Below, piece after piece: positions 6,761-46,120 of a stretch of DNA of 64,000 bases. The DNA is taken from contig MGPQ01000005.1 in NCBI GenBank assembly GCA_001797465.1, forward strand, positions 95,032 through 159,031. The letters run 5' to 3'. Under the pieces are notes generated by a model. That model saw only the letters and a program-made list of their open reading frames with translations, was not told where the DNA came from and did no database searches. This stretch comes from Deltaproteobacteria bacterium GWB2_55_19. Lineage in GTDB: Bacteria > Desulfobacterota > GWC2-55-46. Made by a program: the position numbers and the translations under genes. Each line of letters starts with the position of its first letter. The stretch's first letter is position 1.

Positions 6761-6767
6761 CTCGTTT

Positions 6768-28628: not shown

Positions 28629-29708
28629 TCATTGGAAGTCGCCTACAATAGTTGTGCACCTACAACCAATATCGCATGTGCATTTTGCGTAAGGAAGCTC
28701 AGGCACACTCTCCACTTTGTACTTCTTTCCACCGATCTTTTGACATTCTGCGCAAGTATTCCCGTCATCGACGCTGCTCACTTCGACTGTCTTAACCCGA
28801 GCTTCCTTGTAACCCGCCATATTGCGGAGGTGGGCGGCATAAAAGACAAACATTCGGCAAGCAGCATCGCTGTCCAGGCGGCTGCCTGTTTCAAAATCAT
28901 CCGGCAGCCAACGTCCTGCGATGTTTATACCCCACAACTGCATCATCGCGGCGGATAGACGCAATTTGTCGAGTCGATCTTCCTCTATATCCTTCAAGAT
29001 TTCTGGCGTCCTTTCAAAAATTATCTTTAACGACTCGACACCTGGTTCAACATCGTAGTCTTTCCAGTCGATTCCGAGGCCACGCGGAAATATTTGATAA
29101 GTTTCATACTGAGCAACGATACGAACGGCTTTCGAGAACTCTTTCCTCACTAGAAGGTCAACAACGTCACGCTCTGCAGCGTCTCTCTTTGCTTTTTCGC
29201 CTTCGAGATAATGCTCTGCGAGCCGCATCCCCTCTTTTGTGCATCGGTATATATCAAGGCCCTTCGTTGCGTCACGCATTGATTGCTCGTCGTTCTCAAT
29301 GAGGCGCTGGATAAGTTCTTCCTTGCGGCCGGAAATCTTTAAACCCCTCTCCTTTAGCATCGGTTTAAGATCGGAGACCTTGAATTTATAGTCCACGAGT
29401 TCTTGCAATCCCGCCGGTTCCAGCACCCCTTCTTTAAGAAATTGCTCAATGACTTTAAGAGGTTTTTCCTTGAGTACTGTTTCCCAATATTCGGCACCAC
29501 GGTATCTATCGGTGGAATCACCGCTTCGGAATTTGCTCAATAGAAGCAAATGTGCTGGCGAGTTTCTCCAATCCTTCTTACGCAACCAACCAAACATGCC
29601 CCTTCCTCTCTTGTGTGCCCTAACGTTTTGGTGAGCGGCGCGGCAATTAGAGGCGTCCGCTGTCTGCCAAGAAGTTGTTGCCCGTGCTTCTGCCGCTCTG
29701 GGCTGCAT
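28629..29708 (-). CDS. SAP-domain protein with C-terminal Cys cluster
   Basis: A SAP motif LKPMLKERGLKISGRKEELIQRLI is present. The C-terminus has CAECQ...CTCDIGCRC. Confidence 0.45.
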   Translation of the reverse strand: MQPRAAEARATTSWQTADASNCRAAHQNVRAHKRGRGMFGWLRKKDWRNSPAHLLLLSKFRSGDSTDRYRGAEYWETVLKEKPLKVIEQFLKEGVLEPAGLQELVDYKFKVSDLKPMLKERGLKISGRKEELIQRLIENDEQSMRDATKGLDIYRCTKEGMRLAEHYLEGEKAKRDAAERDVVDLLVRKEFSKAVRIVAQYETYQIFPRGLGIDWKDYDVEPGVESLKIIFERTPEILKDIEEDRLDKLRLSAAMMQLWGINIAGRWLPDDFETGSRLDSDAACRMFVFYAAHLRNMAGYKEARVKTVEVSSVDDGNTCAECQKIGGKKYKVESVPELPYAKCTCDIGCRCTTIVGDFQ

Positions 29709-30585: not shown

Positions 30586-31674
30586 TCAGTTCATTACGGG
30601 CATTATTAGGTTGAAATACCCAGTCGTATCCGCCGGCTTAACGACTATCGCACTGGCCTCGTCCTTAAATTCCAGCCTGACCTTCTCTCCTTCTACAGCC
30701 CTTACCGCTTCGGTCAAGTAGGAAGAGTTGACCTTTATCTTCAGGCTCTCTCCGCTATACTCGGCCTCGGATTCCTCTGTCTCATCGCCTATATTCGAGA
30801 GCGAGGATATGGTCAGGCCCTGCGGATTCATATCGAGTGTCACCATGGAATTCCTGTTCTCGAGTATGATCATCGCGCGTCGCAGCATGGCCATTAATGC
30901 CTCTCTCGACATGACAAGAACCCTGTTGTTTACGCTCTCTCCCGGAACAGCCTTCTTGTAATCCACGAAATCAGCGTGTATCAAGGAGACAACTACCTTG
31001 ATGTTACCGTCTCTCAGAACGAAATAGGTCTTATCCGCCCCGATCATAACGGTTCCTTCCGCCTTTTTAAGAAGGCGCTGGACTTCACGGACACCTGCTT
31101 TCGATATAAAAAGACTGTCTTTCAGCTCTATTGGACCCTCAATACATGCCAGCCTGTAACCATCGGTGGCGACAGCCCTTGCAGCAGTTGTCCCGTCTTT
31201 CTCAAGAAAGAGCCCGTTGATAAAAATCCTGTCATTTGCTATGGGAACCGCGAATACGGTCTTCTCTATCATCCCCCTGAAAGTCTTGCCATCCACCGGA
31301 TACATAGCGCTTTCGTCGATGGAAGGAAAGGAAGGATAATTGTCAGGAACAGGAACCTTTCCGTTGAAAGAGACTCTGGTCTTCTCCGACTTAGCCGTTA
31401 ACTTCGCTTCCTTGGCTGAAAGGGCCACGGAGTCACCCGAAAAAGTCTTCAAAACCTCGTAAAATTTATTGGCATTGACCAGAAATGCACCATCCTTGGC
31501 TATATCTGCCACATCTGTCATAGCAGACAGATAAACACCATCCTTCACGATCTGCACCTTCGCGGTCAGATGGCCAGACGAAGCCTCTAACAACAACTCA
31601 TCGGTATCCCCGACCGTTGATGCCACGATGTCGAGAACGCGCTGTAGTTCCTTTTTGACAACCATTATTTTCAT
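30586..31674 (-). CDS. dnaN: DNA polymerase III beta sliding-clamp homologue (divergent)
   Basis: A 362-aa protein with three-domain clamp architecture. It carries ATDGYRLA and the C-terminal YFNLIMPVMN motif. Confidence 0.7.
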   Translation of the reverse strand: MKIMVVKKELQRVLDIVASTVGDTDELLLEASSGHLTAKVQIVKDGVYLSAMTDVADIAKDGAFLVNANKFYEVLKTFSGDSVALSAKEAKLTAKSEKTRVSFNGKVPVPDNYPSFPSIDESAMYPVDGKTFRGMIEKTVFAVPIANDRIFINGLFLEKDGTTAARAVATDGYRLACIEGPIELKDSLFISKAGVREVQRLLKKAEGTVMIGADKTYFVLRDGNIKVVVSLIHADFVDYKKAVPGESVNNRVLVMSREALMAMLRRAMIILENRNSMVTLDMNPQGLTISSLSNIGDETEESEAEYSGESLKIKVNSSYLTEAVRAVEGEKVRLEFKDEASAIVVKPADTTGYFNLIMPVMN

Positions 31675-31708: not shown

Positions 31709-33292
31709 TCAGGCGATATTTAAGGTTTTGACACCTTTCTTCGTCTTCAGAGTCATGATTCTTTCACTGATATCGATGGAGACAACCTCATGTGGAGAAA
31801 CACCCGCAATTGACAATCCATCCAGCAGGTCGTATATCCTGTACGTCCCGGTGATAGCCATAACGTCCTTCCGTATATCTTCATCGAAGTCATATTTCTG
31901 ACTGTCCCACTGGTCCCCGTCCTCGGAATAGACCCGATTGTCAAAGAAGACGTCAGACACCCCGTAAACATCCTCGGGAGTATCCGCGTAGAAGACATAA
32001 CCGTCACAATAATCCTGGGCTACGGCCACTGCCTTTATGCCCATGTCGGAATCTATGTCGGCCTTGAACCATGTAAGCCGGCCGCAATATTTGCTCTCCG
32101 CATCAGGCACGACTCTAACGGCGCGCTTTCTGTTAAGCGACTTCAGCCATTCAGGACGCCTTTCCGGTAGATTTACGGCCGTTACCGCCCCTTCCGGGAG
32201 GCATACGCCTTCTTCGTCGAATTCGTATGCCTCAATGCCTTCCAGAACCAGCTCTTCGTTAACCGGCAGGGGGTCGCCTCTGCCGATTATGCGGATCTCA
32301 TGGTCCCTGCCTGAGCCATAAGAGCCGTCATGGTGAGGCTCGTATACTTCCACGTAGAACCTGTCGAGGTTGTTAAGCTCATCCTGCGTTCCCAACGCCC
32401 CCATGATTTTCATCCTTTTCTCAAGTTCATGAAAAGGGATCTCCTTCTTAAGGTCGTTAATCGCGGACATGGACTCCTTGACGACCGTATCTCTCACGAA
32501 CTGCCAGAATGCCTCAAGCTTCCCGTCGTGTTTAACAGTCCTACGGTAAGGCAGCACAGGAGTCACCGGAGACCCGTTCACCACGTCCATAACCACGGAT
32601 GGACGCCATCTAAGGTTATGATTTATAGGAATGCCGTACCAGACGACGAACATCTCCCTCACCAGCTTTTCAGGGACATCGTAAAAGGAACAGTCCAGCT
32701 TGATGTATACCGGGTTGGACTCATACATCGTCTTTATGCCGTAGTCGCCAAATTGCTCTTCTGCCTTTTTTTCAGGTAAACGGGTCCCGTTGATTATTAT
32801 GTCTAACGGGAACCACTGGAGCAGTTCCTGATCCAGCACCTTATCTTTCACCTCTGACCTGAGGCGCGCCTCTATGACAAAACCATCAAAGCGCATATCC
32901 GGATTTATGCCTTCCAGCACACTCAGCCTGTATTCATGGTCTACAAGATACCTCTTACAATCAACCCTGACCGTGCCGAACCTGCTCGTGAAGACGACTT
33001 CCTCCGAAATGCTGTAGAGAAAGAACAGGCCCCAGCCGGCTGGCTTTTGGTTCTCTTCGACTTCCTCGGGCCAGTTGGAATCAGCCAGCACAAAAAGGGA
33101 CATTGGGTCAACAGCACCGGAACCGTTATCGATAGTTTTAAGCACTCCGTCCTTCAGCGTTATATTCAGCCCGGTTGCCCCTGAACGGACCGCGTTCTGG
33201 GCTATTTCAACCAACACCGACGAAGGGTGGTCGAAGAAGTAAGGCAGAAGATTAAAAAGCCGCTCCTCGTTTATGGTTTTCTGCAGTTGCAT
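31709..33292 (-). CDS. GHKL/HATPase_c (Bergerat-fold) ATPase, MORC/MutL-like N-domain, unknown C-terminal region
   Basis: An N-box VEIAQNAVRSGAT (E-x3-N-A) and a G1 box IDNGSGA (DxGxG) lie near the N-terminus. The protein is 527 aa. Confidence 0.5.
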   Translation of the reverse strand: MQLQKTINEERLFNLLPYFFDHPSSVLVEIAQNAVRSGATGLNITLKDGVLKTIDNGSGAVDPMSLFVLADSNWPEEVEENQKPAGWGLFFLYSISEEVVFTSRFGTVRVDCKRYLVDHEYRLSVLEGINPDMRFDGFVIEARLRSEVKDKVLDQELLQWFPLDIIINGTRLPEKKAEEQFGDYGIKTMYESNPVYIKLDCSFYDVPEKLVREMFVVWYGIPINHNLRWRPSVVMDVVNGSPVTPVLPYRRTVKHDGKLEAFWQFVRDTVVKESMSAINDLKKEIPFHELEKRMKIMGALGTQDELNNLDRFYVEVYEPHHDGSYGSGRDHEIRIIGRGDPLPVNEELVLEGIEAYEFDEEGVCLPEGAVTAVNLPERRPEWLKSLNRKRAVRVVPDAESKYCGRLTWFKADIDSDMGIKAVAVAQDYCDGYVFYADTPEDVYGVSDVFFDNRVYSEDGDQWDSQKYDFDEDIRKDVMAITGTYRIYDLLDGLSIAGVSPHEVVSIDISERIMTLKTKKGVKTLNIA

Positions 33293-33377
33293 TTAACAAC
33301 CCCCTTTTCTTTTACAATTTTTAATGCCGTTAAAATAAAACCTCGCCTTACGTTTTCTCCATAGTCCTCCTTTTTTT

Positions 33378-33458
33378 GAAATAAAAAAAAGCCACAGGAA
33401 AATTCCTATGGCTTTTTATTCGTTCACCTACTGAAAAAACTACATGTCTATATATTAC
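33378..33458 (-). repeat. conserved intergenic element, copy 5
   Basis: It has the hairpin GCCACAGGAAAATTCCTATGGC plus the core. A 4-codon mini-ORF (MEKT) follows the hairpin on the minus strand. Confidence 0.75.
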
Positions 33459-33472
33459 TTCAGACTACAACT

Positions 33473-34588
33473 TCATCTCTCTTCCGGGTAAAGCACCGTA
33501 ACCACCCATCCTCCCGGATGGCGCTCAGGGAAACCCCATATCTCGCCTGTAGGATGGGATACTTTTATGATCCCGGAAATCCCCTCGTCAAACTTCTTTT
33601 TCACTTTGCTCATAATCTCGTCGACATCGGGCAGGGCCGCAACAGTTTGAGTCGCTACGTAAGTCGCTTTCCGCGGTTTGCTCTTTTTGTCTTGATACTC
33701 CGGCGGGACAGGACATCCCACCAGGTTAAGGAACCTTAACATGAACTCTTCGCTCCAATCGCCGCAGTTGCCGCAATACGCCATGCCCGACACCTCATCA
33801 CATGAGGACAGATACTGCCTTGCCTCTTCGACTGTCTGAGGGTCCTTACTATAGCAATTCGCACAGACTGGACAGATCGGATGACCGCAGGAAGGGCATT
33901 CAAGGACTTCGGACCTCAACACAGGGACCTTATATATAGCCCTCCCGCCGTGTATATCGCAATAAAATCCGGTTACTCGGATAAGCTTCCCTACAGCCTC
34001 TCTTTCGAGCTTCTTGATTTCCATGCCCAGCTCAAGACTCTGTTCCTCCCCTTCCTTCATTTTCTCACGGAGCGCCAAGACCCTGTTCGCAACATCAACA
34101 GGGATTTCAGCCTTATCGCTTTCGGTGCCTGGTACATACTTCCCGTTGGCCATGAGGGGATATTTTACAAGCCCCATTTGCAGAGCGACCTCAATGTCGT
34201 CTTTATGGTCAAAATGATCCCAGAGAACCCCGGTCTGTGCGTCAGAACAAGCCCTATCAAACGCCCAGCTCTCAATGTATTCATTTTCCTCAATCCCAGG
34301 ACATTCATTGGAAAACAGCCACTCCTTTATCTCGTTGTCACTCTTGCCGGAAAGCTCCGGGTGACCTTTTACAATGCCGTCAAGGTCGTCTTTATCAAGC
34401 TCGTTCCAAAGACATTCATTGATAAAGGCATCTCTGCATTCTCCGCCCTGACACGCCTCCTTTTCATAAAACTTGACTTGCTCCGCTACTGATTCATCAA
34501 AAGACTTCTGGTCCAGCGAATCCCACAACGTCTTCCCTTCTCTCCCTGTGAGTTCATAGCAATACTTTACGCCTTCCGCCATAGACAC
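33473..34588 (-). CDS. Cys-rich hypothetical protein (multiple CxxC zinc-binding clusters)
   Basis: CPSCGHPICPVCANC...CGNCGDW clusters are present. It has its own intergenic element (copy 6) upstream. Confidence 0.4.
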   Translation of the reverse strand: MSMAEGVKYCYELTGREGKTLWDSLDQKSFDESVAEQVKFYEKEACQGGECRDAFINECLWNELDKDDLDGIVKGHPELSGKSDNEIKEWLFSNECPGIEENEYIESWAFDRACSDAQTGVLWDHFDHKDDIEVALQMGLVKYPLMANGKYVPGTESDKAEIPVDVANRVLALREKMKEGEEQSLELGMEIKKLEREAVGKLIRVTGFYCDIHGGRAIYKVPVLRSEVLECPSCGHPICPVCANCYSKDPQTVEEARQYLSSCDEVSGMAYCGNCGDWSEEFMLRFLNLVGCPVPPEYQDKKSKPRKATYVATQTVAALPDVDEIMSKVKKKFDEGISGIIKVSHPTGEIWGFPERHPGGWVVTVLYPEER

Positions 34589-34597
34589 CTCCGTTTT

Positions 34598-34682
34598 TGA
34601 AATAAAAAAAAGCCACAGGAAAATTCCCGTGGCTTTTATGTTCGTGAGACCTACTGAAAAAACTACATGCCTATATATTACC
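34598..34682 (-). repeat. conserved intergenic element, copy 6
   Basis: It has the hairpin AGCCACAGGAAAATTCCCGTGGCT plus the core. The stop codon of the E1 gene lies inside the core. Confidence 0.75.
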
Positions 34683-35453
34683 TTTGATTCTCTTCCAGGC
34701 TTCGGGGTCGACCGGCAGTGGGTTCACTCTCATCGACTTGAGGTCGATAAAGCACCCGTGATTCTCAAGATGCCCCTGCCTGAAGCCTGTCCAGAGCAAC
34801 TGCACGGCCCAGGATGCGACAATCGTGTTTACCAGCAGGTCCTGATGTTCCAGAGCCACTGCAAGCGAACACGAGGGGCCCTGGGCCTTTTCCTTAACTT
34901 TCGTAAGATCATAAAGTTCGTCTACAGACGGCAAAACTGCTACAGCGTCTCTCCCTGGCGGCTGCGGTATATCCTTGAGAGACCCCAGTATCACCTGGCC
35001 AGTATCCCTTGTATTCCCAGTGTCGAGCCAGTAAAGACAGTGCGAGTCCAAACGGGCTGCCCTCCCGATAACCGTACGAGCCCTGGCCGAATCCACGGCG
35101 GATATCAGGATTGACGGTCGCACAGTATCGTCCGACCTGGAGCCATCGAAGGCGAAGGGACAGGCCTTCCAGGAGAACCCCATGAACTGGTTTATTTTAG
35201 TTACCGAGACCACCGCCTTGTTCCGTCCGACATCGAGCGGGGAGAAGTTCTGCCGCGCGATATTGGCTTCGCTAACATTGTCGTCGTCAAAAACCGACAC
35301 ATTCAGGCCGGGATGCCTTAACTGACATAGGGCGTAATGGAGCCTTGCCAGCCCGGTAAGTATCTGGCTACCGGTGCCGCCGCAACCTACAAGCGCGACA
35401 TAAACAGGTCCATCGGCTGCGGTTATCTCTTTATGCAGATAGTGTTTTTTCAT
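34671..35453 (-). CDS. ThiF/MoeB-family E1-like ubiquitin-activating enzyme homologue
   Basis: The nucleotide-binding Gly loop YVALVGCGGTGSQI is present. The 260-aa size fits a minimal E1. Confidence 0.75.
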   Translation of the reverse strand: MKKHYLHKEITAADGPVYVALVGCGGTGSQILTGLARLHYALCQLRHPGLNVSVFDDDNVSEANIARQNFSPLDVGRNKAVVSVTKINQFMGFSWKACPFAFDGSRSDDTVRPSILISAVDSARARTVIGRAARLDSHCLYWLDTGNTRDTGQVILGSLKDIPQPPGRDAVAVLPSVDELYDLTKVKEKAQGPSCSLAVALEHQDLLVNTIVASWAVQLLWTGFRQGHLENHGCFIDLKSMRVNPLPVDPEAWKRIKGNI

Positions 35454-36045
35454 CTAGAACACCCCTAAAAGTGAAAAAATGGCCTTCTATGCACAACCTT
35501 ACCTTAAGATTCGGTTGCATATTTTTGTCGAAGCTTATGACCCCTGAAAAACGTATCCCTCCCATGTCGTCATGGTCATCGACTCCGCTGAAGGCGGTCA
35601 TATCGAATGGGTGGCTGTGGAGGTCGACGACAAGATGACCTCCGTTAAGCTCCGGATACTCGTAGCTCACCGAGGAAGACGACTCTTTTATTATTGTCGG
35701 TTCCACGAAACGATACCCGTCAAGAGCGCCCCATACTATCCACCCAGCCCACTCAAGCCCCTTTCTAGCTTTATTCCTGGCAACCTCGATACTACGGTCC
35801 AGCAGAGACAGGGGGAGCTGTCCACTCTCAAGACGGTAAATATATTCCGCCTCCCCGTATGGCAGCGACCGTAGTGACTTCCATAAAGGAAGCCTGAAAT
35901 GCCCCCACGGGACCTTTGCCTCGACCCACAGCCCGTCAAAAGCCATCAGATACCTGTATCCCCCTTCAATTGCAGGGAGCTCGGAATACCTCGGCACCAT
36001 GACGACCGGACAGGCTTCCTGTATGATCCTGTCCTTAATATCCAT
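35431..36045 (-). CDS. JAB/MPN (JAMM) metalloprotease, deubiquitinase-like
   Basis: There is an exact JAMM motif H-S-H-x7-S-xx-D in VVDLHSHPFDMTAFSGVDDHDD. Confidence 0.75.
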   Translation of the reverse strand: MDIKDRIIQEACPVVMVPRYSELPAIEGGYRYLMAFDGLWVEAKVPWGHFRLPLWKSLRSLPYGEAEYIYRLESGQLPLSLLDRSIEVARNKARKGLEWAGWIVWGALDGYRFVEPTIIKESSSSVSYEYPELNGGHLVVDLHSHPFDMTAFSGVDDHDDMGGIRFSGVISFDKNMQPNLKVRLCIEGHFFTFRGVLDEKTLSA

Positions 36046-36748
36046 TTGTCACTCTTCTCCTTAAATCAGACAGCAGGTCGGAAACCGTCCTGCAACTACG
36101 GGACGGGACAAGTTGAGAGTCAGGGAACCTGGAAGCCCCTGATTTGACAAGACCGTCCCAGAACTCGGTCAAGGAGCCCGTCTTGACTCTATTTTCCTCC
36201 TGAACCTCTGAAAAACTGCTCTCGAAGAAAGCCTTTTCCCATCCACCGTAATCAAACGATCTTTCCGGGAGGGAGCTGTTGCCGAGGCACACATCAGAAC
36301 CGTGCATGTTCGGAAAAGGCGCGACATAAAGCCTCGTCTTCAGACCAGGCCTCTTGGTGCCCTTGACCGCATGGACCTTGAGATGTCCCCCATGTGTGAC
36401 AAAAACAAGACTCGGCCAAGGCGCATTCCCGCTCTTTGCATCGAGTTTCTCGAAGAAGATGTGCTTTACACTGCCTGGAACCCACCACACGTCGGGCCCC
36501 ATCGCCGAGCCTGAAGACGCAAGGACCCCGGCATCGATAAACCTCAGACTGTCGGATACGAGTCCGGGAAGTAGCTGCCTGCATAAAGCAGTCAGGTCCT
36601 CCAGCGTATACGGAACCCCTTCAAGCAGCATAGATCTGCCGTCCTGTTCCATGACCTTATGCCTTTGAAGATACATACTGTTGCCGTAGTACCCGTTAAA
36701 GGCCGAATACACGAGTATCGCCTCTGACAGCTTGTATTCGGTTAACAT
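36035..36748 (-). CDS. E2-like (UBC-fold) ubiquitin-conjugating enzyme homologue candidate
   Basis: FPNMHGSDVCLG resembles the E2 HPN..G..ICL active-site motif (PN followed 6-7 residues later by the catalytic Cys). It is positioned like BilB/E2 in E2-JAB-E1 operons. Confidence 0.45.
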   Translation of the reverse strand: MLTEYKLSEAILVYSAFNGYYGNSMYLQRHKVMEQDGRSMLLEGVPYTLEDLTALCRQLLPGLVSDSLRFIDAGVLASSGSAMGPDVWWVPGSVKHIFFEKLDAKSGNAPWPSLVFVTHGGHLKVHAVKGTKRPGLKTRLYVAPFPNMHGSDVCLGNSSLPERSFDYGGWEKAFFESSFSEVQEENRVKTGSLTEFWDGLVKSGASRFPDSQLVPSRSCRTVSDLLSDLRRRVTNGY

Positions 36749-36751
36749 AAT

Positions 36752-37933
36752 CTACTCCTTTCCTTTAGTGTTGAAAAAGCCGAACACCCTGCATAGACGC
36801 GCAAGCGTCCGCAATGTGTGCTTCAATTCGGAGACCTGGCGTTCCATTTGAGCTCCGGACTTAAACGGGATTTCCCAGTGACAGACGATATCGGAACCTG
36901 ATCCACTCTGCATAATGTTATCTATCTCTTCGCAGTAGTATTTAGTCACGGCATCTCTGTCATCAAAATCGTATAGGATGGAAAACATAAGCTCAGGCCT
37001 CAAACTCTCGTCTTCACAAACATCATGGATATTCCTGATCGCCGCAACCGGGTCATCTTCAAGAAATTCGATAACGGTTTTGAACCAATCGCAGTACCCC
37101 TTTTCAAAACCGTTTTTCGGTTTGAAGCGAGAGACATCTTTCTTAAAGGTTTTAAGTCTCTTTTTCACTTCCAAGCGTGAAGAGAAAAACCGGACAGCCG
37201 GATATGCCTTGATAGCGGCATAGGATTCCCGGTAGCGCTTGATATCCTCCTCGTCGTAGTTTCCCGGAACTTCCAGCTCAGGCAAAATGCAGTTCTCGTA
37301 AAAATCCTCGGCAGCATCCCTGATATCTCTCCATGTGTAACAAATGGTCCCCAACAGCTTCACCGCCTCGTCAAACATACAGGAAATCAGTTTTCCCCCG
37401 GAATCCAGTTCTCTTTTCTGCGCCAGATATACGAACGACAAAATATCGGAAACGGTGGTCTCAAAGGTCAATCCTAAAGAACCGTCATTACAACCGGTTA
37501 TAGACACCAGCACTCCGTTCCCATATGCCGACGAATACCCGTTAAGCTCGTCTGCAAGACACTTCGTCATATCAAGCACGAGCCTTGTGACACAGGCGCG
37601 ATCCTCCCAGTTCATTGAAATGCCCGGATTGACCTGAAGAATCGTTCTTGCAAGACCCTTGATGAAGAACTTGAGCTCCTTGTCCGAGAAAAACCCGACT
37701 TCAGGCCAGAAAGATGCCGGGGCGTTCAACTCGGGAAGCGCCAGCGCGGTAAAGGGAGGCAAGGTTACCGGCAGATTCACGGGTATAAGGAACTTTCCCC
37801 CGCTGCTCCGGCGCGCCAGCCTTTCAAACCCCTGTTGGACTTTTCTATCCGAAAAACCCGGATATGTTTCCCCTCTGGTCGAAAGAAAGGGGCGCCATCT
37901 GACTCCCCGCTGAAAGGAATTCAGGGTGAGCAT
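36752..37933 (-). CDS. hypothetical protein (393 aa) upstream of the E2/JAB/E1 genes
   Basis: There is no confident motif. GSLGLTFETTVSD is only weakly Pol-beta-NTase-like and lacks the second acidic residue. Confidence 0.35.
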   Translation of the reverse strand: MLTLNSFQRGVRWRPFLSTRGETYPGFSDRKVQQGFERLARRSSGGKFLIPVNLPVTLPPFTALALPELNAPASFWPEVGFFSDKELKFFIKGLARTILQVNPGISMNWEDRACVTRLVLDMTKCLADELNGYSSAYGNGVLVSITGCNDGSLGLTFETTVSDILSFVYLAQKRELDSGGKLISCMFDEAVKLLGTICYTWRDIRDAAEDFYENCILPELEVPGNYDEEDIKRYRESYAAIKAYPAVRFFSSRLEVKKRLKTFKKDVSRFKPKNGFEKGYCDWFKTVIEFLEDDPVAAIRNIHDVCEDESLRPELMFSILYDFDDRDAVTKYYCEEIDNIMQSGSGSDIVCHWEIPFKSGAQMERQVSELKHTLRTLARLCRVFGFFNTKGKE

Positions 37934-37937
37934 ATAT

Positions 37938-38456
37938 TCACCTCTTTGTCATGATCTCAATCAACGTATCCTTTTCCTCAGGGGTAAGGTAGAGATAATC
38001 CGGCATCGACTCCCCTTCCTGTCTGTCGTTAAGCTCAAGAGGAGCTGCAGTAACGACAGTCCCGAAAAAATTGACCAGAACCGTCTTCTCCACCGTCACC
38101 GGGTCCCCCCAGTCATCCCCATGCCTGATATCGTAATAGAACAGACCTGGTTCACGGTCGTTTTCAGGAATCCTGAACTCAGAGACCATAAGGATATTAT
38201 CAGGGTCTAAACGGGGCTTCCTTACCACCAGACATCCCTTGGTCCCTATCGCCTTTCTGAAGGCATAGACAAGCTCCCCGTTCTCGTTGTTCTCGGGCCC
38301 TTCGACGGCGGCCTGGGTGAGCTCGGGGTATACGCTCGAATAAAACGACCTTACTTCCTCAGGCTTCATATTGACATCCGGGTCCTGAAGGACCATCGAA
38401 TTGTATTTGAAAACCCTCTTTACCTCGGTTACTTCCGCCATTGTTTTCTCCTTCAA
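37938..38456 (-). CDS. hypothetical protein with possible N-terminal beta-grasp/Ubl-like region
   Basis: A 172-aa protein. Residues 1-75 end in ..AFRKAIGTKG, followed by a separate C-terminal region. The Ubl-like assignment is speculative. Confidence 0.3.
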   Translation of the reverse strand: MKEKTMAEVTEVKRVFKYNSMVLQDPDVNMKPEEVRSFYSSVYPELTQAAVEGPENNENGELVYAFRKAIGTKGCLVVRKPRLDPDNILMVSEFRIPENDREPGLFYYDIRHGDDWGDPVTVEKTVLVNFFGTVVTAAPLELNDRQEGESMPDYLYLTPEEKDTLIEIMTKR

Positions 38457-38478
38457 AGATTTTTTGTAGACGAACGCA

Positions 38479-38967
38479 TCAACCGAACAGGGTAGGGATC
38501 AGCGACTCCTTCTTATCCGGCGGAGCAGCGGCTTCCATGTTCTTACCTGACTCCATAGAGTCCTCAGATTCCGTACCATCTGTTTTTTTAGGCGATGGCA
38601 CTGTCCTGGCGGCAGACTTCTTTGCAGATTCCAGCTTCTTGTTGCAGGCTTCCTTCGCCTGTTTAAGCGCCTCTTGAGTGCTGTCGTCCAGTCCCTTCAG
38701 GGCCTCCTCGAAACTGCGCCTTCTGGTGCTATCCTGAGAAAGGATCTCCATGAACTTCCCGTCAAGCTCCTCCGTAGTGGCGGTTATGACAAAAGGCGAC
38801 CTTACCTTTTCGATGGCGTCACCGGCGTCCGTTACGTTGTTCAACTTCTTTTCTGGATATCTGGGATGCACCATGACACACAGCCTGCCGTCCTCGGCAA
38901 CCCTTAATGACAGGAGCAGATCCCCTTTTTCTGGTATCAAACTTTTAATCTCAGAAGCTTTCAGCAT
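38479..38967 (-). CDS. hypothetical protein (162 aa, ends in Gly)
   Basis: An N-terminal folded region is followed by a long charged tail ending ..PTLFG. Confidence 0.3.
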   Translation of the reverse strand: MLKASEIKSLIPEKGDLLLSLRVAEDGRLCVMVHPRYPEKKLNNVTDAGDAIEKVRSPFVITATTEELDGKFMEILSQDSTRRRSFEEALKGLDDSTQEALKQAKEACNKKLESAKKSAARTVPSPKKTDGTESEDSMESGKNMEAAAPPDKKESLIPTLFG

Positions 38968-39221
38968 GTCTTTATTCCTCCCTTTCTTTTATTGGTTGTT
39001 TCATTCTCCTCCACTTTTCTACATCTTATGTGTCTCGCCTTGCCGCTGCCCATTAGGACGGCTTTCGAATAGTCGTCCAGCAGACGGCCGCACTTGTAGC
39101 AGGAAGGAACCTCGAATTTCTCGATCCTGAAGCCAGTTTTGCAGACCGGACAAAAAAATTCGTCATCTCCCCTCCTGTAACGTCTAAATCTCTTGCTTCT
39201 GCAAGCAGGACAAAACACCAT
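38961..39221 (-). CDS. zinc-ribbon protein (start taken at the ATG at 39221 after AAGGAGGTGG)
   Basis: The motifs CPACRSK...CPVCK...CYKCG are present. The longer table ORF would start inside the intergenic element hairpin. Confidence 0.4.
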   Translation of the reverse strand: MVFCPACRSKRFRRYRRGDDEFFCPVCKTGFRIEKFEVPSCYKCGRLLDDYSKAVLMGSGKARHIRCRKVEENETTNKRKGGIKTC

Positions 39222-39244
39222 CCACCTCCTTTTTGATTTTCTTC

Positions 39245-39328
39245 GAAATAAAAAAAGCCACAGGAAAAAACTTCCCATGGCTTTATGTTCGTGATACCTA
39301 CTGAAAAAACTACATATCTATATATTAT
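39245..39328 (-). repeat. conserved intergenic element, copy 7
   Basis: It has the hairpin AGCCACAGGAAAAAACTTCCCATGGCT plus the core. Confidence 0.75.
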
Positions 39329-39336
39329 CTCTTTTA

Positions 39337-41526
39337 CTAAAGAAGTATCTTTGAATCAGCGGCGTCCTGCACATCAGGCGACTGGGAGATAAAAAACTCC
39401 ACATCGTACCCGCCAAGTTCAATGACCCGCTTCTTCATGGCGATAAACTCCTTTTTACGCCTAAAATCCAGCGCTCCGTCCTTCTCGTCGGTAAAAAGTG
39501 CCTGATACCTGCGACCGCTTCTCTGCGCGTTGTAAAGTGATATCGCCCTGGTCACGGCCTCTTCAATCCAGACCTTCTCCCCGCCACTCATCGTCTTAAG
39601 GCTCTTGGATTCGTCTCTTTCCGAGTCATAGACGGTTATGTCAAAGGTCTCTTTAGTCCCCTTCCCGTCGGCCTTGACAGCCTGGGTATCTATCTTTACG
39701 CTGAACCTCGTGCCGAAACAGCTCGCAAGGAGATCATTGGCTGATGAACTTATAGCGGGACCGGCATCGTCTATCTCCAAAGCGATGACGCCGTCGTTCC
39801 CGAAGGCCCTCTCCAGCAAGGCCCATTCCGAAACCTCCGCGTTCACGAATGATAAACGGTCATCCAAGGTCTTAATCTCTTTTATAGCCGCTTCTCCATC
39901 GGCCAGCTTTTTCTCGACACCCCCAAGGAGCTTCTTTATGTCATTGAGCTTCTCGATATATTCCTGGCGCTTCGATTTCAAAATGCCAAGTTCCCGTTCC
40001 TTCTCCTTGACCTTTGCAAGTGGATTCTCGCCGGCAAGGAAAGACCCCAATTCGGCCTTCAGGTTCTTAAGCTCGACATCGAGCCCGGGATACATAGATT
40101 CGGCAAACTCCACCTCCGGCAGACTCTTTCCCAGTTCGCCTGCCTTTCTTATCACCGTCTCGACCTCGATAATCTCCTTTGAGAGACTCTGCTTTTTCCT
40201 GACCGCGTCCAGTAACTCAACCTGGGCTTCCTTGAGCTTTAAAAGTTGAGGTTCCAGTTGTCTAATCTCTTTCCGCAGTCCCGCATCCTTACCGGGAGCT
40301 GCGCCGGAGGCCTGCAGTCTGGAGATCATCTCCGGGATAGACTTCTGGGCCTTCACCGCGTTTTTAAGGAGCGGACACCTATTATGATGTTCCGTTCCAC
40401 ACGGAACATCGCCAAGAAGCCCGGCGGTCTCCTTCGCTAGACGGAGGTCCTTTTTCAACACTTCTTCCGAGTGCTTTTGTACCAGAAGAAGCTCATCAAG
40501 GGACTTCCTTAGCAAAAGGAGTTTCCTTTCAGCTTCCCGGCCAGCCTGTTCCCTCTCCCGCAGCCCTGTTAAGGCGGTTTCGAGAGAGGCCATCTCTTTC
40601 TTAAGGAGCTCGGCCTTGCATTGATACCGTTTCAGTTCCGCCGAAGCGTCCTTGACGGTCTGAGCCCTGGACAGAATACCCTTCATCTTGTCTATTTTCC
40701 CTGCAACCTCCCTGATCCTAGCTTCTATGGAGCCGCGTTCTTCAAGTGACCTGGCATAAAGGGCTGCCTGAGCCTCTATATGCCTAAGCTCTACCTGCTT
40801 TCCCTCTATTCCGTCCTCGGCCAACCTTAATTCCTTTTCAAGGTCCATGTTCACAGTTTTAAGCCTCTCGGCTTCGGCATCGGCTTTTTTCGATTCGTCA
40901 ATTACCGCCGTAAGCCTCTCCTTCTCGCGCCTCAGCCATTCAGTATCCTTCAAAAAGCCTTCCTTTCTCTCCTTCGCCTTCTGACCCTTGGCTTTCAGCG
41001 ACTCTATACCGAGCAGTTCGACAAAGATGTCCTTTATCTCTCCTCTGGTGTAATCGCTCAGCCTCGGCGCGTCCTGACAACGGAAGACGCTTGTAAAAAA
41101 GAGCTGCGGAGAGCCCAGCAGGTTCTCTACCGTCTGATCATAAGTATCGGTCTTGCCGTCACTGAGGGCTTTCCATTCGCTCTCCGCCTCTTCATACAGG
41201 TATGCCTCCTGCTTCTTTCTTTCGACGTCAATAAGCAAAAGGCTCCTGTATCTGCGTCCGTTCAGCTCGAAGACGAACTCCTTGGAAGCGTCGCTCCCGT
41301 AACAGTCGTTATAGTAGCTGAATGCCCTGGAAGAATAGCTCCCTGCGCGGTACGGCATAATGCGGTAAGGATGAAGATTATCCAGCACCGTGGTCTTCCC
41401 GGAACCGTTCGGACCTGCTACGGCCACGAGGCCCGTACATGCTGAAAAATTGACCTCCAACTCGTCTTTTCCAGAACCCGACCTCACGCCTTTAAATCCT
41501 TTAAGTTTCAAGTACATGGGCCTCAT
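39337..41526 (-). CDS. sbcC: SbcC/Rad50-like SMC-type ATPase
   Basis: The N-terminal Walker A is GPNGSGKTTVLD. There is a long coiled-coil middle section. The C-terminus has the ABC signature MSGGEK and a Walker B LFTDE. Confidence 0.8.
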   Translation of the reverse strand: MRPMYLKLKGFKGVRSGSGKDELEVNFSACTGLVAVAGPNGSGKTTVLDNLHPYRIMPYRAGSYSSRAFSYYNDCYGSDASKEFVFELNGRRYRSLLLIDVERKKQEAYLYEEAESEWKALSDGKTDTYDQTVENLLGSPQLFFTSVFRCQDAPRLSDYTRGEIKDIFVELLGIESLKAKGQKAKERKEGFLKDTEWLRREKERLTAVIDESKKADAEAERLKTVNMDLEKELRLAEDGIEGKQVELRHIEAQAALYARSLEERGSIEARIREVAGKIDKMKGILSRAQTVKDASAELKRYQCKAELLKKEMASLETALTGLREREQAGREAERKLLLLRKSLDELLLVQKHSEEVLKKDLRLAKETAGLLGDVPCGTEHHNRCPLLKNAVKAQKSIPEMISRLQASGAAPGKDAGLRKEIRQLEPQLLKLKEAQVELLDAVRKKQSLSKEIIEVETVIRKAGELGKSLPEVEFAESMYPGLDVELKNLKAELGSFLAGENPLAKVKEKERELGILKSKRQEYIEKLNDIKKLLGGVEKKLADGEAAIKEIKTLDDRLSFVNAEVSEWALLERAFGNDGVIALEIDDAGPAISSSANDLLASCFGTRFSVKIDTQAVKADGKGTKETFDITVYDSERDESKSLKTMSGGEKVWIEEAVTRAISLYNAQRSGRRYQALFTDEKDGALDFRRKKEFIAMKKRVIELGGYDVEFFISQSPDVQDAADSKILL

Positions 41527-41805: not shown

Positions 41806-41957
41806 CTCAAAAGCCGATCCGGGTGGTTATAACAAAACCCATAAACAGTAAACCTATCAGAATGCACCCGGCTGCAAAAATCTCAAGAGTTAGCAATGCC
41901 AAATTACGACCTCCTTTCTTTATATTTAAGTTATTTGCCGCCTTCTTTTTGTTTTCA

Positions 41958-42041
41958 TGAAATAAAAAAAGCCACAGGAAAAGTTCCCGTGGCTTTATGT
42001 TCGTAAGACCTACTGAAAAAATTACATGTCTATATATTACC
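41958..42041 (-). repeat. conserved intergenic element, copy 8
   Basis: It has the hairpin GCCACAGGAAAAGTTCCCGTGGC plus the core. A possible 31-codon hydrophobic small ORF (TTG start after AAGGAGG) follows on the minus strand at about 41917-41822. Confidence 0.75.
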
Positions 42042-42046
42042 TGCTT

Positions 42047-43222
42047 TTACACCGCCAAGGCTTCGGCCCGCTGTGTCTCTTCGCAAACATCCTCCCCATG
42101 TTCAAGCAGAGCGAGCTTCTTGAAAGCGCCTTCCGGAAGGTCTTCTCCTACCGTCTCGGCCCACTTCCTCAACTTATCGTCGAGGGAGGCAAGCCTTGAG
42201 ATACCCTCGGCCCTAACCCTCTGCCTGGGGACCACCGTCTTTTCTATCTTTATTTCGGCGGCTCCCATGGCTGCAAGCTTTTCCTTCAGGACCTTTTCAT
42301 CCACCATATGCACCTCTTCCTCCGATACCTGATATCTGAGCCGCACGCAAGCCCCTTCAGGGACATGCTCCAGAACATCAGGAGAAGGCGGGGCATCACA
42401 GTCTACCGTCACCATCTCTCTTGCGGGCGTCTTTATGAACCGGGAGGCTACCTTTCTGGCCTCGAAGCTATGTATCCAGAACCCCTTGTCCTCTGCCTCG
42501 CCAAAGTTCAGGCGTGTTATAGAGCCGGAGTAAAAGACCTCCCCCCAATTTTGAGCCTTATGAATATGGCCGAGGCAGACAAGGTCAGCCGCTGCCATCC
42601 GCAGGTCCCCAACACCGAGTTCCACTTCCCTGCCTACCATCTGCTGTCCAGTGGAAAGTATAGCGCCGGTCACGCTCAGATGACCGACAAGCACAGTCGG
42701 GATGTTCATTCTCACCCTTGTGTTGACCTCGCCCCAGCCCCTCAGGACATCGCGCATCAGCTCCACCGTGTTGAACGAAGTCTCGGAAAGGCTCCCTTTG
42801 TAAAAAGCCGCAATGGAAGCCTTGGAAACCGACGGCAGACACGAAAAAAGAGCTCCAGCATCCCCGGGAACAGTGCCGTTATACTTAATGAACCCCCTTG
42901 CAGTCAAAAGAACCTGCTCGGGCGCCTCTGATATATAGACCCTCTCGTTTTCAAAGAACTTGAGGGTCTGTCCGTCATGAGAAGGCGTGCCCTTTACGAT
43001 AAGAACCGGAGCAGTCCTCGAGAGTCGGCGTATATACCGGTCCGCAGTGAGAAAGGCCGGACTGTCATAGGTCTGCCTCTCATCGAATATATCTCCGGCT
43101 ATTACGATCGCATCCGGCCTGACAGACGATTCAGCCCTTTTTGCTGCAAAATCGACGCATTTTTCTATCTCCGCAAGCAGGTCGTTCCTGAAGTGGATAT
43201 CCCCTAAGTGTAAAATCATCAT
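42047..43222 (-). CDS. sbcD: SbcD/Mre11-like metallophosphoesterase nuclease (start at MMILHLGDIHF)
   Basis: The calcineurin-like motifs LHLGDIHF and IAGDIFDE are present. It is paired with sbcC. A GGGAGA RBS lies before the internal ATG at 43222. Confidence 0.8.
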   Translation of the reverse strand: MMILHLGDIHFRNDLLAEIEKCVDFAAKRAESSVRPDAIVIAGDIFDERQTYDSPAFLTADRYIRRLSRTAPVLIVKGTPSHDGQTLKFFENERVYISEAPEQVLLTARGFIKYNGTVPGDAGALFSCLPSVSKASIAAFYKGSLSETSFNTVELMRDVLRGWGEVNTRVRMNIPTVLVGHLSVTGAILSTGQQMVGREVELGVGDLRMAAADLVCLGHIHKAQNWGEVFYSGSITRLNFGEAEDKGFWIHSFEARKVASRFIKTPAREMVTVDCDAPPSPDVLEHVPEGACVRLRYQVSEEEVHMVDEKVLKEKLAAMGAAEIKIEKTVVPRQRVRAEGISRLASLDDKLRKWAETVGEDLPEGAFKKLALLEHGEDVCEETQRAEALAV

Positions 43223-43376
43223 TTCTTTGTCTCCCTCATAAGTTTTTCCCATGCCACCGCAAGCCTCTTGGAATGAACCGATGAGACCCAAAACCATATA
43301 ATACTGCGGTCTGCACCAGGATCTGAGAATCGGGATAGTACGCTCCTGAGTTTTTTTAGCATAACGGCTCCATACG

Positions 43377-44368: not shown

Positions 44369-45016
44369 TTACTCGTCGACCAGATGTATCGGCGCTCCTT
44401 CTGCAAGGGCTTTCTTCACCCTGTCGTCCGCCATTTTGTTTTCAGGCATGACATACTCGAAATGGGCAAAGGGCAGCCAGAGAAAAGTTCCAGCCGAATA
44501 CTTGGGCCGGTAATTGTTCACCATCCGCGGCACGTTATAGGTGGTAGATCCGATTTTTCTAAAGTATTTTTCGTCCTGAAGTTCAGCATCGACAAAGAAG
44601 TAAAGGCTTCGTAAGCAGAACTCCCCACCCTTTTCGTGCGTGGGTATGTCTTTCGGACACCGGTCGACAGACTCCTTTGTTTCATCGACAAGAGCTTTTG
44701 GATGTATGAAAAACATCCTCGACTGAAACGGTGTCACTCCGGACCAGTCGAAATTGACAGGTACCCTTTTAGATACCCCGAGATACCTCGTCTCCTCGAT
44801 GAAATCCGGACAGAAGGGATAGAACTCCTGCCCGACCCAGAATATGAGGTCCTTGACGCCGTTTCTCTCCTGCACCAGAGGGGCCCTGAAAGGGTCGCCG
44901 TTATACGGCAGCGGCGGGTCAATCAGAAAATGCTCGATAGGCTCGCCGTATGGAGAAGTGCCACAACAGGCATATAGACCTCCTTTTACCCTCTTTCCGC
45001 ATCCTCTCGTCGTCAT
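44369..45016 (-). CDS. hypothetical protein (215 aa)
   Basis: An ORF that overlaps the parB-like stop by 4 nt. Confidence 0.35.
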   Translation of the reverse strand: MTTRGCGKRVKGGLYACCGTSPYGEPIEHFLIDPPLPYNGDPFRAPLVQERNGVKDLIFWVGQEFYPFCPDFIEETRYLGVSKRVPVNFDWSGVTPFQSRMFFIHPKALVDETKESVDRCPKDIPTHEKGGEFCLRSLYFFVDAELQDEKYFRKIGSTTYNVPRMVNNYRPKYSAGTFLWLPFAHFEYVMPENKMADDRVKKALAEGAPIHLVDE

Positions 45017-45729
45017 GAATATTGGACCTCCTTTTTCAAAAATCCCCTTATTACGTCCACGGCGTTCTTTACATCTTCCGACAGTGGATGACCGGTTGAC
45101 ATCTTCGCGACCACCAACTCAAAGTCCAAAACCAGCTGATCGCACCCTTCCTCAACCGGAATCAGCGAGAGTAACGATGAAAGATTATGCTTAACCTTCC
45201 TCTGGTGCACATCCTCTTTCGTAATCTCTCCACTTAAGACGAGCTCCTTCTGAGCCTCTTTCGGCAACCGAGAAAGCTCAAAGGCGGTCGATGCGTTGAC
45301 CTCCCCCGATTTGACCTTGTTGAGCGCCTCTTTGCAAAGGTTCAACAGCCTAAAGTGCTTCTTGAGCTGCGTCCTGGAAAGACACAGCCTGTCGGCTATC
45401 TCCTGCTGCGTATAGCCGGACTTGATACAGAGCCTGATCTTATCGACTTCGTAAGCCAGGTTCGGTGACCGTTGAAGGTTCAACATCACCCCGAGAAGAT
45501 CAGAGTCATTCTCCCCTTCCTCCATGATTATCGCCGGGACCGTCTCAAGACCAAGATTCCTTGCGGCCTGGATCCTGCGGCGCCCATCGATAACCTCATA
45601 CCCATGCCCGTTTTTGTTGATCATTATTGGAACCCTGATACCGACTTCCTTGATGCTCTCTACAAACTTCGTTCCGGGCAGACACGTCTCAGTTCTTATG
45701 TCCACTACGTTGACTTCCCTTACCTCCAT
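45013..45729 (-). CDS. ParB/Spo0J-like nuclease-fold DNA-binding protein
   Basis: The ParB N-domain GRRR motif (VIDGRRRIQAA) is present. It is the first gene after the most upstream intergenic element copy. Confidence 0.7.
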   Translation of the reverse strand: MEVREVNVVDIRTETCLPGTKFVESIKEVGIRVPIMINKNGHGYEVIDGRRRIQAARNLGLETVPAIIMEEGENDSDLLGVMLNLQRSPNLAYEVDKIRLCIKSGYTQQEIADRLCLSRTQLKKHFRLLNLCKEALNKVKSGEVNASTAFELSRLPKEAQKELVLSGEITKEDVHQRKVKHNLSSLLSLIPVEEGCDQLVLDFELVVAKMSTGHPLSEDVKNAVDVIRGFLKKEVQYS

Positions 45730-45758
45730 ACTCCTTACACCTCCTTTTTGTGGTTTTT

Positions 45759-45842
45759 AAAATAAAAAAAGCCACAAGAACGAATTCTCGTGGCTTTTGT
45801 TCGTAAAGGCCTACTGAAAAAATTACATACTCATATATTACC
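45759..45842 (-). repeat. conserved intergenic element, copy 9 (most upstream)
   Basis: It has the hairpin GCCACAAGAACGAATTCTCGTGGC plus the core TTTTGTTCGTAAAGGCCTACTGAAAAAATTACATACTCATATATTACC. Confidence 0.7.
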
Positions 45843-46120
45843 CCTCCCACAGGCTTTTACTGCCTGAACAACTCTTAACAGGCTAAGCTGATCATCTACC
45901 TCTTAGGGCGCCTGAGCTGACTCCCTCTATCAACCTATCCTCATCGAAGAACAACATCCTTTTCCGTCTTTAGATGAAGAAATCTTAAACATTACCCCTC
46001 TACTGTCCAGTGCTCTATTTTCAGAAACGACTCATTCGGGATCTTTTTTATTAGATGGGGTTTTCAAAAATCAAGGATGTATGAGAAGCACAGATAGGGG
46101 GGTAGAATGCGATAAGGCAG

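Follow-up and report, generated by a model that had tools for sequence, protein, structure and literature searches.

The 64,000-nucleotide stretch of DNA analysed here (the window; contig MGPQ01000005.1 of Deltaproteobacteria bacterium GWB2_55_19) carries on its minus strand, at 34671-39221, a unit of seven tightly spaced genes, neighbours of which overlap or are separated by gaps of at most 37 nucleotides. Profile matches identify this cassette as a PRTRC system (NCBIfam TIGR03734-TIGR03742), corresponding to operon type 6d, and so as a member of a known family. It encodes a ubiquitin-like protein (Ubl), an E1, an E2-like protein and a JAB/JAMM metallopeptidase. An initial annotation had described an E2-like/JAB/E1 ubiquitin-like cassette on a mobile element, and the family profiles together with the genes of the element bear this out. 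The explanation that we consider probable is that the unit is a PRTRC conjugation cassette residing in the backbone of a conjugative element, that its Ubl is matured by the JAB peptidase and that it most likely serves the element.

Families were assigned using NCBIfam curated cut-offs, Pfam profiles and PADLOC defence models. Five of the seven genes passed the NCBIfam cut-offs for PRTRC components, and the matches are not fortuitous. The E1 scored 255.7 bits with PRTRC_ThiF (TIGR03736, cut-off 144.75), the JAB 132.6 bits with PRTRC_A (TIGR03735, cut-off 101.8), the E2-like protein 153.5 bits with PRTRC_B (TIGR03737, cut-off 131.45), the Ubl 83.9 bits with PRTRC_C (TIGR03738, cut-off 45.95; a model that NCBIfam types as 'domain') and a 162-aa protein 46.2 bits with PRTRC_E (TIGR03741, cut-off 37.95). 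The Pfam profiles detected Prok-E2_D (PF14460, E = 1e-32) in the 237-aa E2-like protein, Prok_Ub (PF14454, E = 1e-23) and LPD28 (PF18843, E = 1.8e-17) in a fusion protein that carries the Ubl, DUF2016 (PF09436) and Prok-JAB (PF14464) in the JAB, ThiF in the E1 and PRTRC_E in the 162-aa protein.

Operon type 6d was predicted by Iyer, Burroughs and Aravind in 2006 to consist of a Ubl with a conserved C-terminal Gly, a helical protein, an E2-like protein lacking the classical His, a JAB with a JAB-N domain and an E1 (PMC1779556), and the window cassette matches the published description point by point. The two share the gene families E, C (Prok_Ub), B, A and ThiF, with a predicted helical protein at the F position, in identical order, a location on a mobile element near a ParB gene, an E2 without the classical HPN histidine and a Ubl glycine within GTKG. 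The window cassette differs from the family in that its Ubl is fused to LPD28, a fusion seen in only 2 of the best 150 representatives, its E2 also lacks the family's downstream His, its F-position protein is too diverged to match TIGR03742, an extra zinc-ribbon gene heads the operon and the ParB is short and ordinary rather than the ~555-aa PRTRC ParB. Since five genes pass the PRTRC cut-offs and the 6d description fits, the label 'Bil/6E-like' given in the initial annotation is wrong in detail. The same annotation had counted four uncharacterised genes upstream of the catalytic ones; three of these turn out to be PRTRC_E, PRTRC_C and, from its position and weak profile similarity, a divergent PRTRC_F, and only the fourth, the zinc ribbon, is lineage-specific.

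We determined the conserved catalytic columns from alignments of 16-19 family members, listing residues that are at least 90% conserved. In the E1, the conserved residues G23, G25, G26, G28, D56, R67, K79, D121 and Cys195 are all present in the window protein, and its nucleotide-binding site is intact; Cys195 is likely the crossover-loop cysteine, because of its position downstream of the Mg-binding Asp. The JAB retains the full JAMM set (E98, H143, H145, S153 and D156), its sequence HSHPFDMTAFSGVDD fits HxH-x7-S-xx-D, and R31 in the JAB-N domain is conserved as well. In the E2, Asn147 is invariant and Cys154 nearly invariant across 17-18 family members, and the motif FPNMHGSDVCLG resembles the HPN...C motif of UBC proteins, with Phe replacing His. 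Every motif quoted earlier for these proteins (the E1 loop VGCGGTGSQ, the JAB signature and PNMHGSDVCLG of the E2) was recovered, and all quoted open reading frames (ORFs) and motifs lie on the minus strand. Judged from the alignments, all the enzymatic and Ubl components are present with their conserved catalytic residues, save the downstream His of the E2.

The Ubl is the N-terminal part of a larger protein. The fusion was listed as 37938-38456 (172 aa), and the ATG used by all its relatives, at 38441, is likely the true start and gives 167 aa. In this numbering G66-T67-K68-G69 closes the Prok_Ub domain, which leaves the glycine internal with 98 residues after it. The initial reading of an N-terminal Ubl ending in GTKG and followed by a C-terminal extension is thereby upheld, with Prok_Ub in residues 1-69 and then LPD28; trimming by the JAB stays a prediction. 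The fusion of Ub to LPD28 is kept in seven related protein clusters, and five of the six full-length ones read GTKGG, whereas in the window protein and its 95% relative the sequence is GTKGC. The definition of LPD28 comes from polyvalent proteins of phages and conjugative elements, in which it accompanies a zincin-like peptidase domain (PMC5512222). It also occurs as a stand-alone protein of ~95 aa on Bacillus plasmids. Between the extension and that of a 96%-identical relative, codon differences are too sparse to be informative about selection.

Searched exhaustively with phmmer, 1.84 billion cluster representatives yielded 835 relatives of the Ub domain. In the best 150 of these, GTKG is conserved to at least 90%, and 147 carry a motif of the GTKG type. 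The extension counts refer to clusters at 50% identity among these nearest 150, so variable proteins are over-represented in them. Only 16 of the 147 motif-bearing representatives end exactly at GTKG and 131 continue past it: by 1-5 residues in 5 cases, 6-30 in 3, 31-80 in 91 and more than 80 in 32. The residue that follows GTKG is A, G or S in 86 of the 131. Most extensions are devoid of Pfam domains (LPD28 occurs in 2 of the 150), and two representatives consist of five head-to-tail Ub repeats, each closing in GTKG. Downstream of one of the latter lie an E2-like gene (E = 1.5e-6) and a gene for a PRTRC-type ThiF, with HNH and LAGLIDADG homing-endonuclease genes between. From these counts a C-terminally blocked Ubl is common in the PRTRC_C family despite the cluster bias, and maturation by a peptidase, as shown for the Ubls of Bil systems, is therefore the natural reading. 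This suggests that processing of a Ubl precursor by the JAB is a normal step in PRTRC systems.

Some further observations concern the same proteins. The extensions are variable, spanning 30-220 residues in most representatives, including those of the related loci L005-L020 (loci are here denoted by L numbers), and at least about 40 of the 126 longer ones end in a similar short tail, LPPSEALGMI, PPWQELEPV or PSxALPLLP. The five-fold poly-Ub gene described above lies at 8001-8876 of L029, a 229-kb metagenomic contig, with neighbours up to 15726 and many small unannotated genes around it, resembling a very large phage or plasmid; the other poly-Ub protein (P0026) is in L028.

The mechanism that we propose begins with the Ubl being made as a precursor fused to LPD28. 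Cleavage by the JAB after G-T-K-G69 would release a Ubl of ~7.7 kDa with a C-terminal Gly and an LPD28 fragment of ~11 kDa. The E1 would then adenylate G69 and probably form a thioester on Cys195, and the Ubl would pass to Cys154 of the E2 and from there to lysines of target proteins. The JAB probably also removes the Ubl from targets.

The remaining proteins of the unit (E, F and the zinc ribbon) may be adaptors, an E3-like factor or substrates. In PRTRC_E an acidic low-complexity linker joins a conserved N-terminal domain to a hydrophobic tip at the C-terminus. Every one of the 24 related loci that the comparison retained has an ORF of the E family, which lies immediately upstream of the Ubl gene wherever coordinates were read. 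In loci L001-L026 the protein often ends in a short hydrophobic or aromatic tip (..LIPTLFG, ..AFDLFG, ..MIDLF, ..TLSLFS, ..GVDMY or ..GLDVW). This tip recalls the C-terminal tip of single-stranded DNA-binding protein (SSB) and the QL(S/D)LF clamp-binding motif; the element encodes a DnaN and an SSB of its own.

The 393-aa protein between the Ubl and E2 genes had no direct family match in NCBIfam, TIGR03742 included, or in Pfam. The same slot holds an ORF of 292-396 aa in 18 of 20 related loci examined. With TIGR03742, slot occupants of the Burkholderia type score 126 bits, one deltaproteobacterial occupant matches weakly (E = 0.0024) and one of nine close relatives of the 393-aa protein is marginal (E = 0.027). 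Alignment of the window clade with the deltaproteobacterial F-position clade by hhalign gave a probability of 77% (E = 2e-5, 163 columns). Position and weak profile similarity thus point to the 393-aa protein being a divergent PRTRC_F. The zinc-ribbon protein shows weak matches to Pfam zinc ribbons and is conserved in L001, L004 and L030; on this comparison, its gene is specific to the lineage of the window.

We retrieved related loci with a search pattern that was derived from 21 aligned Ub-domain sequences. This yielded 23 loci from at least six phyla or classes: deltaproteobacterial metagenome-assembled genomes, Syntrophorhabdus, Nitrospirota, Manganitrophaceae, Burkholderia, Undibacterium, Hyphomicrobiales, Spartobacteria and Ignavibacteria. 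The order E, C, F-position gene, B, A, ThiF was found in all 19 loci that are long enough to show it, and a Manganitrophus plasmid has an identical layout behind a ParB gene. The system is common, a tblastn search having found PRTRC-type ThiF on 355 PLSDB plasmids, 138 of them from Pseudomonas; the carriers include pMOL28 of Cupriavidus metallidurans, pPRO1 of Pelobacter propionicus and megaplasmids of Pseudomonas, Burkholderia and Cupriavidus, and 187 of the 355 are typed as non-mobilizable. Megablast of window positions 33000-40000 against the PLSDB plasmids gave no match. The nearest relative is L030, a metagenomic contig (GCA_040960315.1) with cassette genes at 89-99% nucleotide identity, followed by L001 and L004 with 50-70% protein identity. 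In all three, synteny is kept over the genes for ParB, a 215-aa protein, the ArdC-like, SbcD-like and SbcC-like proteins, the zinc ribbon, the PRTRC proteins, a 371-aa Cys-rich protein and a 527-aa protein.

By its gene content the window is a conjugative-element backbone, and the host is deltaproteobacterium-like. The transfer genes, with a type IV secretion system (T4SS) among them, encode TraE-, TraK- and TrbI-like proteins, a coupling protein (T4CP), a lytic transglycosylase and a DsbA/thioredoxin-family protein. Replication and establishment genes encode SSB, ribonucleotide reductase, an SNF2 helicase, a DUF6094 methyltransferase, primase-like and Gp3-like proteins, a toxin-antitoxin pair and DnaN. 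Further along are the PRTRC unit, the SbcCD-like genes, the ArdC-like protein and ParB, and then metal-resistance cargo. Nearly all the genes of the element are on one strand. In its layout this backbone resembles the plasmid establishment and anti-defence regions described in PMC11541004, which makes no mention of ubiquitin-like genes. Neither an origin of transfer (oriT) nor a relaxase was located with confidence in the window. The scanned proteins of the window hold no integrase domain and the window no tRNA gene, so the element may be a plasmid or an integrative and conjugative element (ICE).

Several findings weigh against the explanation given above. The window ParB scores 43 bits with the PRTRC-type ParB model (TIGR03734, ~555 aa), which has a cut-off of 278.6, and PRTRC_D (TIGR03739) was not found among the 20 neighbouring proteins scanned with NCBIfam. 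The His downstream of the E2 Cys, described as 'absolutely conserved' by Iyer et al. (PMC1779556), occurs as F(T/S)H in Burkholderia-type, Manganitrophaceae and other members and, in the ~70% relatives L001 and L004, two positions later; in the window E2 and its 90-96% relatives it is replaced by Glu/Gln (FSEVQE). The Cys that follows GTKG in the window Ubl is unique among the 131 extended representatives. A full-text search of the searchable literature found no experimental paper on PRTRC or type 6d, only mentions in genome annotations and one preprint that misreads the acronym. Single-sequence searches of the PDB with all components, and profile searches with the E2 and the Ubl domain, found no relative of solved structure for any part of the cassette. 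The AlphaFold2 (AF2) model of the Ubl fusion is of low confidence (mean pLDDT 48; residues 20-69 reach 64-75 in the order strand-helix-strand-strand), and that of the 393-aa protein is helical and likewise of low confidence (pLDDT 52). Lastly, that the fusion is cleaved, which proteins are tagged and what the cassette does are matters of inference.

For each of the Ubl fusion, the 393-aa protein and the E2, word-indexed homologue searches recovered only 6-8 close relatives, a depth too shallow for good structure prediction. Profiles of the Ubl domain and the E2 gave nothing significant against PDB sequences, and a Foldseek search gave no match at E <= 0.001. As the AF2 models are poor and the fold searches uninformative, the beta-grasp and UBC folds are assigned here from Pfam and from Iyer et al. 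2006.

The cassette was compared with other ubiquitin-like systems. It is assembled from the same four parts as Bil (BilABCD), namely Ubl, E2, JAB deubiquitinase and E1, in matching order, and likewise has a Ubl in which a conserved Gly is followed by extra residues for removal by a JAB, predicted in the window cassette and established for Bil Ubls, which are matured by their own JAB after a conserved Gly (PMC10557695). The type II Bil system corresponds to 6C, and its E1, BilD, is eukaryote-like and has several domains, among them an inactive adenylation domain and a Cys domain (PMC10557695). The sequence families differ: BilD has ~450 or more residues, in contrast to the minimal 260-aa ThiF protein of the window, PRTRC adds the E and F proteins, and Bil is found in defence islands, unlike the window cassette in its mobile-element backbone. 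Membership in Bil is rejected, given that the PADLOC models for BilA, BilB and BilC had no match, that the BilD model reached 17.1 bits (E = 4e-4) on the generic ThiF core only and that the published definitions differ.

The 6E type is now named Bub and uses oxyester chemistry, with E1 and E2 proteins that lack catalytic cysteines and a DUF6527 protease (PMC11601596). The two families have in common a bacterial Ubl, E1, E2 and peptidase, and some Ubls of both are multi-beta-grasp proteins. They differ in that the window E1 and E2 keep their conserved cysteines and the JAB is a separate gene, whereas in Bub a DUF6527 serine protease, a JAB fused to the E1 or both serve as the peptidase. No gene of the unit matched DUF6527 in Pfam, and E2 Cys154 and E1 Cys195 are conserved, on which grounds membership in Bub/6E is rejected.

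Ubiquitin itself is produced in eukaryotes as polyubiquitin and as fusions to ribosomal proteins (UBA52 and RPS27A), from which a peptidase is needed to expose the C-terminal glycine. The PRTRC Ubls share with these precursors the arrangement as an N-terminal fusion or as head-to-tail repeats. They differ in the fusion partner, which is LPD28 or one of the variable uncharacterised tails, and in ending with GTKG and not RGG; their processing is a conjecture.

The role of the cassette was weighed against four alternatives. A sulfur-carrier function in the synthesis of a cofactor or thio-compound, as in pathways of ThiS/MoaD with ThiF/MoeB, is extremely unlikely. The E1 does belong to the ThiF superfamily and matches ThiF models weakly, but it scores 24-29 bits with the ThiF and MoeB equivalogs, which have cut-offs of 150-275. 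No ThiG, ThiH, MoaE, CysM, rhodanese or other biosynthetic partner lies in or near the unit, and it contains an E2-like protein, a JAB and a Ubl that ends in GTKG instead of GG with a 98-residue extension. The absence of cognate biosynthetic genes and the presence of the E2-like protein and JAB also agree with the initial annotation, which had named a sulfur-carrier pathway as the finding that would overturn it; this pathway is effectively excluded. We also hold it to be very unlikely that the Ubl is not conjugated at all, with Prok_Ub acting as an N-terminal carrier or chaperone for variable cargo, the JAB only releasing that cargo and the E1 and E2 acting elsewhere or on a non-protein acceptor. 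The variable extensions in most representatives, the window E2 without the family His and the stand-alone LPD28 found elsewhere would all suit such a carrier. However, the near-invariant GTKG, the nucleotide site and Cys of the E1 and the Cys and Asn of the E2 are sensible only if the Gly carboxylate is activated and transferred, and 16 representatives are bare Ubls that end exactly at GTKG.

The other two alternatives concern whom the conjugation would serve. One has the cassette act against phages in the manner of Bil, attaching the Ubl to a phage structural protein during infection, and the cassette would be cargo of the mobile element. The match of parts and relative order to BilABCD speaks for it, as do the studied Iyer types in phage defence or stress response (6B in type II CBASS, 6C in Bil and 6E in Bub), the 'anti-phage 6A-MBL system' listed by NCBIfam and the fact that mobile elements often carry defence systems. 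Yet the PADLOC defence models gave no match to the E2, the JAB, the Ubl or the E and F proteins, leaving only the weak BilD hit. The cassette sits in a conserved backbone synteny (ParB, ArdC, SbcCD, PRTRC, 371-aa and 527-aa proteins) and not in a variable defence island, it is one of several same-strand units divided by a common intergenic element, and NCBIfam defines PRTRC by its ParB linkage on mobile elements. We regard this alternative as unlikely. The same low weight is given to an addiction or regulatory module, in which the E1 and E2 would modify, and the JAB de-modify, a host or element protein so that loss of the element is harmful or partition or replication is regulated. It is the proposal of Iyer et al. 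themselves for the 6a-6e types (PMC1779556), and the linkage of PRTRC to ParB across the family (L010, L017 and the Manganitrophus plasmid) agrees with it; the fraction of PLSDB carriers that are non-mobilizable fits maintenance better than transfer. Against it, no toxin-like component is recognisable, and the element has separate toxin-antitoxin pairs.

We therefore return to a PRTRC conjugation cassette acting for its element. Most likely it serves establishment in a new host, maintenance or anti-defence and not host metabolism, which is the least certain step of the explanation, and this role is weakly favoured over host defence of the Bil kind. The defence or anti-defence role suggested initially is a possible one. 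More tentatively, and with a probability that we put well below even, PRTRC Ubls may in general be precursors, composed of Ub and a variable module or of Ub copies, from which the JAB would release an activatable Ubl and a free effector, the cassette acting for the element at entry or during persistence, for example by tagging host defence or replication proteins.

The coordinates of the unit and of other features of the window are collected in the table.

Table. Genes, repeats and regulatory features in the window.
Feature	Position	Strand	Description
Zinc-ribbon protein	38961-39221	-	86 aa; CPAC..CPVC..CYKC; first gene of unit
PRTRC_E	38479-38967	-	162 aa, ending ..SLIPTLFG; TIGR03741 match
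Ubl domain (Prok_Ub / PRTRC_C)	38235-38441	-	residues 1-69 of 167-aa protein; PF14454, TIGR03738
Ubl C-terminal extension	37938-38234	-	residues 70-167 (short linker and LPD28) and stop codon; PF18843
393-aa protein at PRTRC_F position	36752-37933	-	mostly alpha-helical; placed by position and weak profile similarity
PRTRC_B, E2-like (Prok-E2_D)	36035-36748	-	237 aa; TIGR03737, PF14460
PRTRC_A, JAB/JAMM metallopeptidase	35431-36045	-	204 aa; N-terminal JAB-N (DUF2016)
PRTRC ThiF-family E1	34671-35453	-	260 aa, single ThiF domain; TIGR03736
Intergenic element, nine copies	~45749-45847, 41948-42046, 39236-39334, 34589-34687, 33366-33464, 27197-27284, 22578-22676, 20117-20169, 19273-19325	-	
371-aa protein	33473-34588	-	unannotated
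527-aa protein	31709-33292	-	unannotated
SbcC/Rad50-like ATPase	39337-41526	-	
SbcD-like nuclease	42047-43297	-	
ParB	45013-45729		
DnaN	30586-31674		
SSB	15007-15438		
359-aa protein	28629-29708	-	SAP domain
Cobalamin riboswitch	6758-6943	+	RF00174, 121.7 bits
CbiM-family cobalt transporter	7174-7830	+	
39-nt direct repeats	46136-46174, 58706-58744		92% identical, 12.6 kb apart
134-nt direct repeat	60446-60579, 60755-60888		77% identical, copies 309 nt apart

The zinc-ribbon gene starts with the ATG at 39221, behind the ribosome-binding site (RBS) GGAGGTGG (GGAGG), and a protein of 86 aa is also called in a relative; the gene overlaps the start of PRTRC_E by 7 nucleotides. Strong intrinsic terminators bracket the unit on its coding strand, at 39284-39254 and 34637-34608, with stems of 13-14 bp followed by T runs. 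The single transcription unit proposed initially is plausible, given the short gaps and overlaps between the seven genes and the flanking terminators.

Both terminators belong to an intergenic element of ~90-100 nucleotides that occurs in nine copies in the window and separates successive same-strand gene groups. Read on the coding strand, the element consists of a box GGTAATATATAGACATGTAGTTTTTTCAGTAGG..ACGAACATAAA, a GC-rich hairpin of 13-14 bp with a T run, and the RBS of the next gene. The start of the box coincides with the stop codon of the gene before it or falls inside that codon, and the arm sequences of the hairpin vary between copies with the stem kept. In the copy at 39236-39334 the box reads TAATATATAG..TAGTTTTTTCAGTAGG..ACGAACA and is followed by the upstream one of the two terminators, which ends the unit of the SbcC-like gene; in the copy at 34589-34687 the stop codon of the E1 gene lies within the box, followed by the downstream terminator. 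The copy compared in L030 has one difference in ~125 aligned bases. Rfam holds no family for the element. Its opposite strand shows weak promoter-like hexamers, CTGAAA..TATATT. A reading as an Frpo-like single-strand promoter found no support, as DNA folding gave the short terminator hairpin only and no long stem mimicking a promoter.

Directly downstream of the cassette are the 371-aa and 527-aa proteins. The pair recurs beside PRTRC genes in L001, L004 and L030, in L009 (Nitrospirota, with DnaN) and in L017 (Manganitrophaceae), and thus in distant taxa, and the two proteins may be functional partners of the cassette. Cys pairs abound in the 371-aa protein. Near the N-terminus of the 527-aa protein is a GHKL ATPase-like pattern, ExxxNA...DNGSG, and the sole PDB match of this protein, to MutL, is non-significant (E = 0.84). 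Just upstream of the PRTRC unit lie the genes for the SbcD-like nuclease and the SbcC/Rad50-like ATPase, with an 87-aa ORF and a single intergenic-element copy between them and conserved as a pair in relatives; the ATPase matches the Lamassu LmuB model weakly (E = 8e-11).

Elsewhere in the window, the cobalamin riboswitch precedes the CbiM-family transporter gene, and the two are inserted among the minus-strand transfer genes. The 359-aa protein weakly matches Mu F-like/SPP1 gp7, a domain typical of phage proteins that are co-packaged or transferred with DNA and of polyvalent proteins of conjugative elements. The 39-nucleotide direct repeats bracket the metal-resistance cargo, which includes a cytochrome c, a P-type ATPase and an RND efflux pump with its fusion and outer-membrane proteins; the repeats could be module boundaries or shared operator sites. 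The 134-nucleotide direct repeat is in the cargo region.

A standard annotation pipeline would name this locus largely correctly, and for a specialist the surprise is therefore moderate. The window offers a compact, apparently complete PRTRC example with a natural Ub-LPD28 fusion, and its variant features are that fusion, the lack of the family His in the E2, a diverged F protein and an added zinc ribbon. For four of the five E1/E2/JAB operon types of 2006 (6B, 6C, 6E and 6A-MBL) there is by now an experimental study or a curated anti-phage model, and type 6d/PRTRC is, in the searchable literature, apparently the one type without biochemical, structural or genetic study. Unlike the other types, PRTRC is located in the backbone of mobile elements, beside partition and establishment genes. 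If the precursor reading is true, PRTRC Ubls would be the counterpart, on bacterial mobile elements, of the eukaryotic polyubiquitin and Ub-fusion genes. The targets of PRTRC could reveal how plasmids and ICEs use ubiquitin-like chemistry on their hosts.

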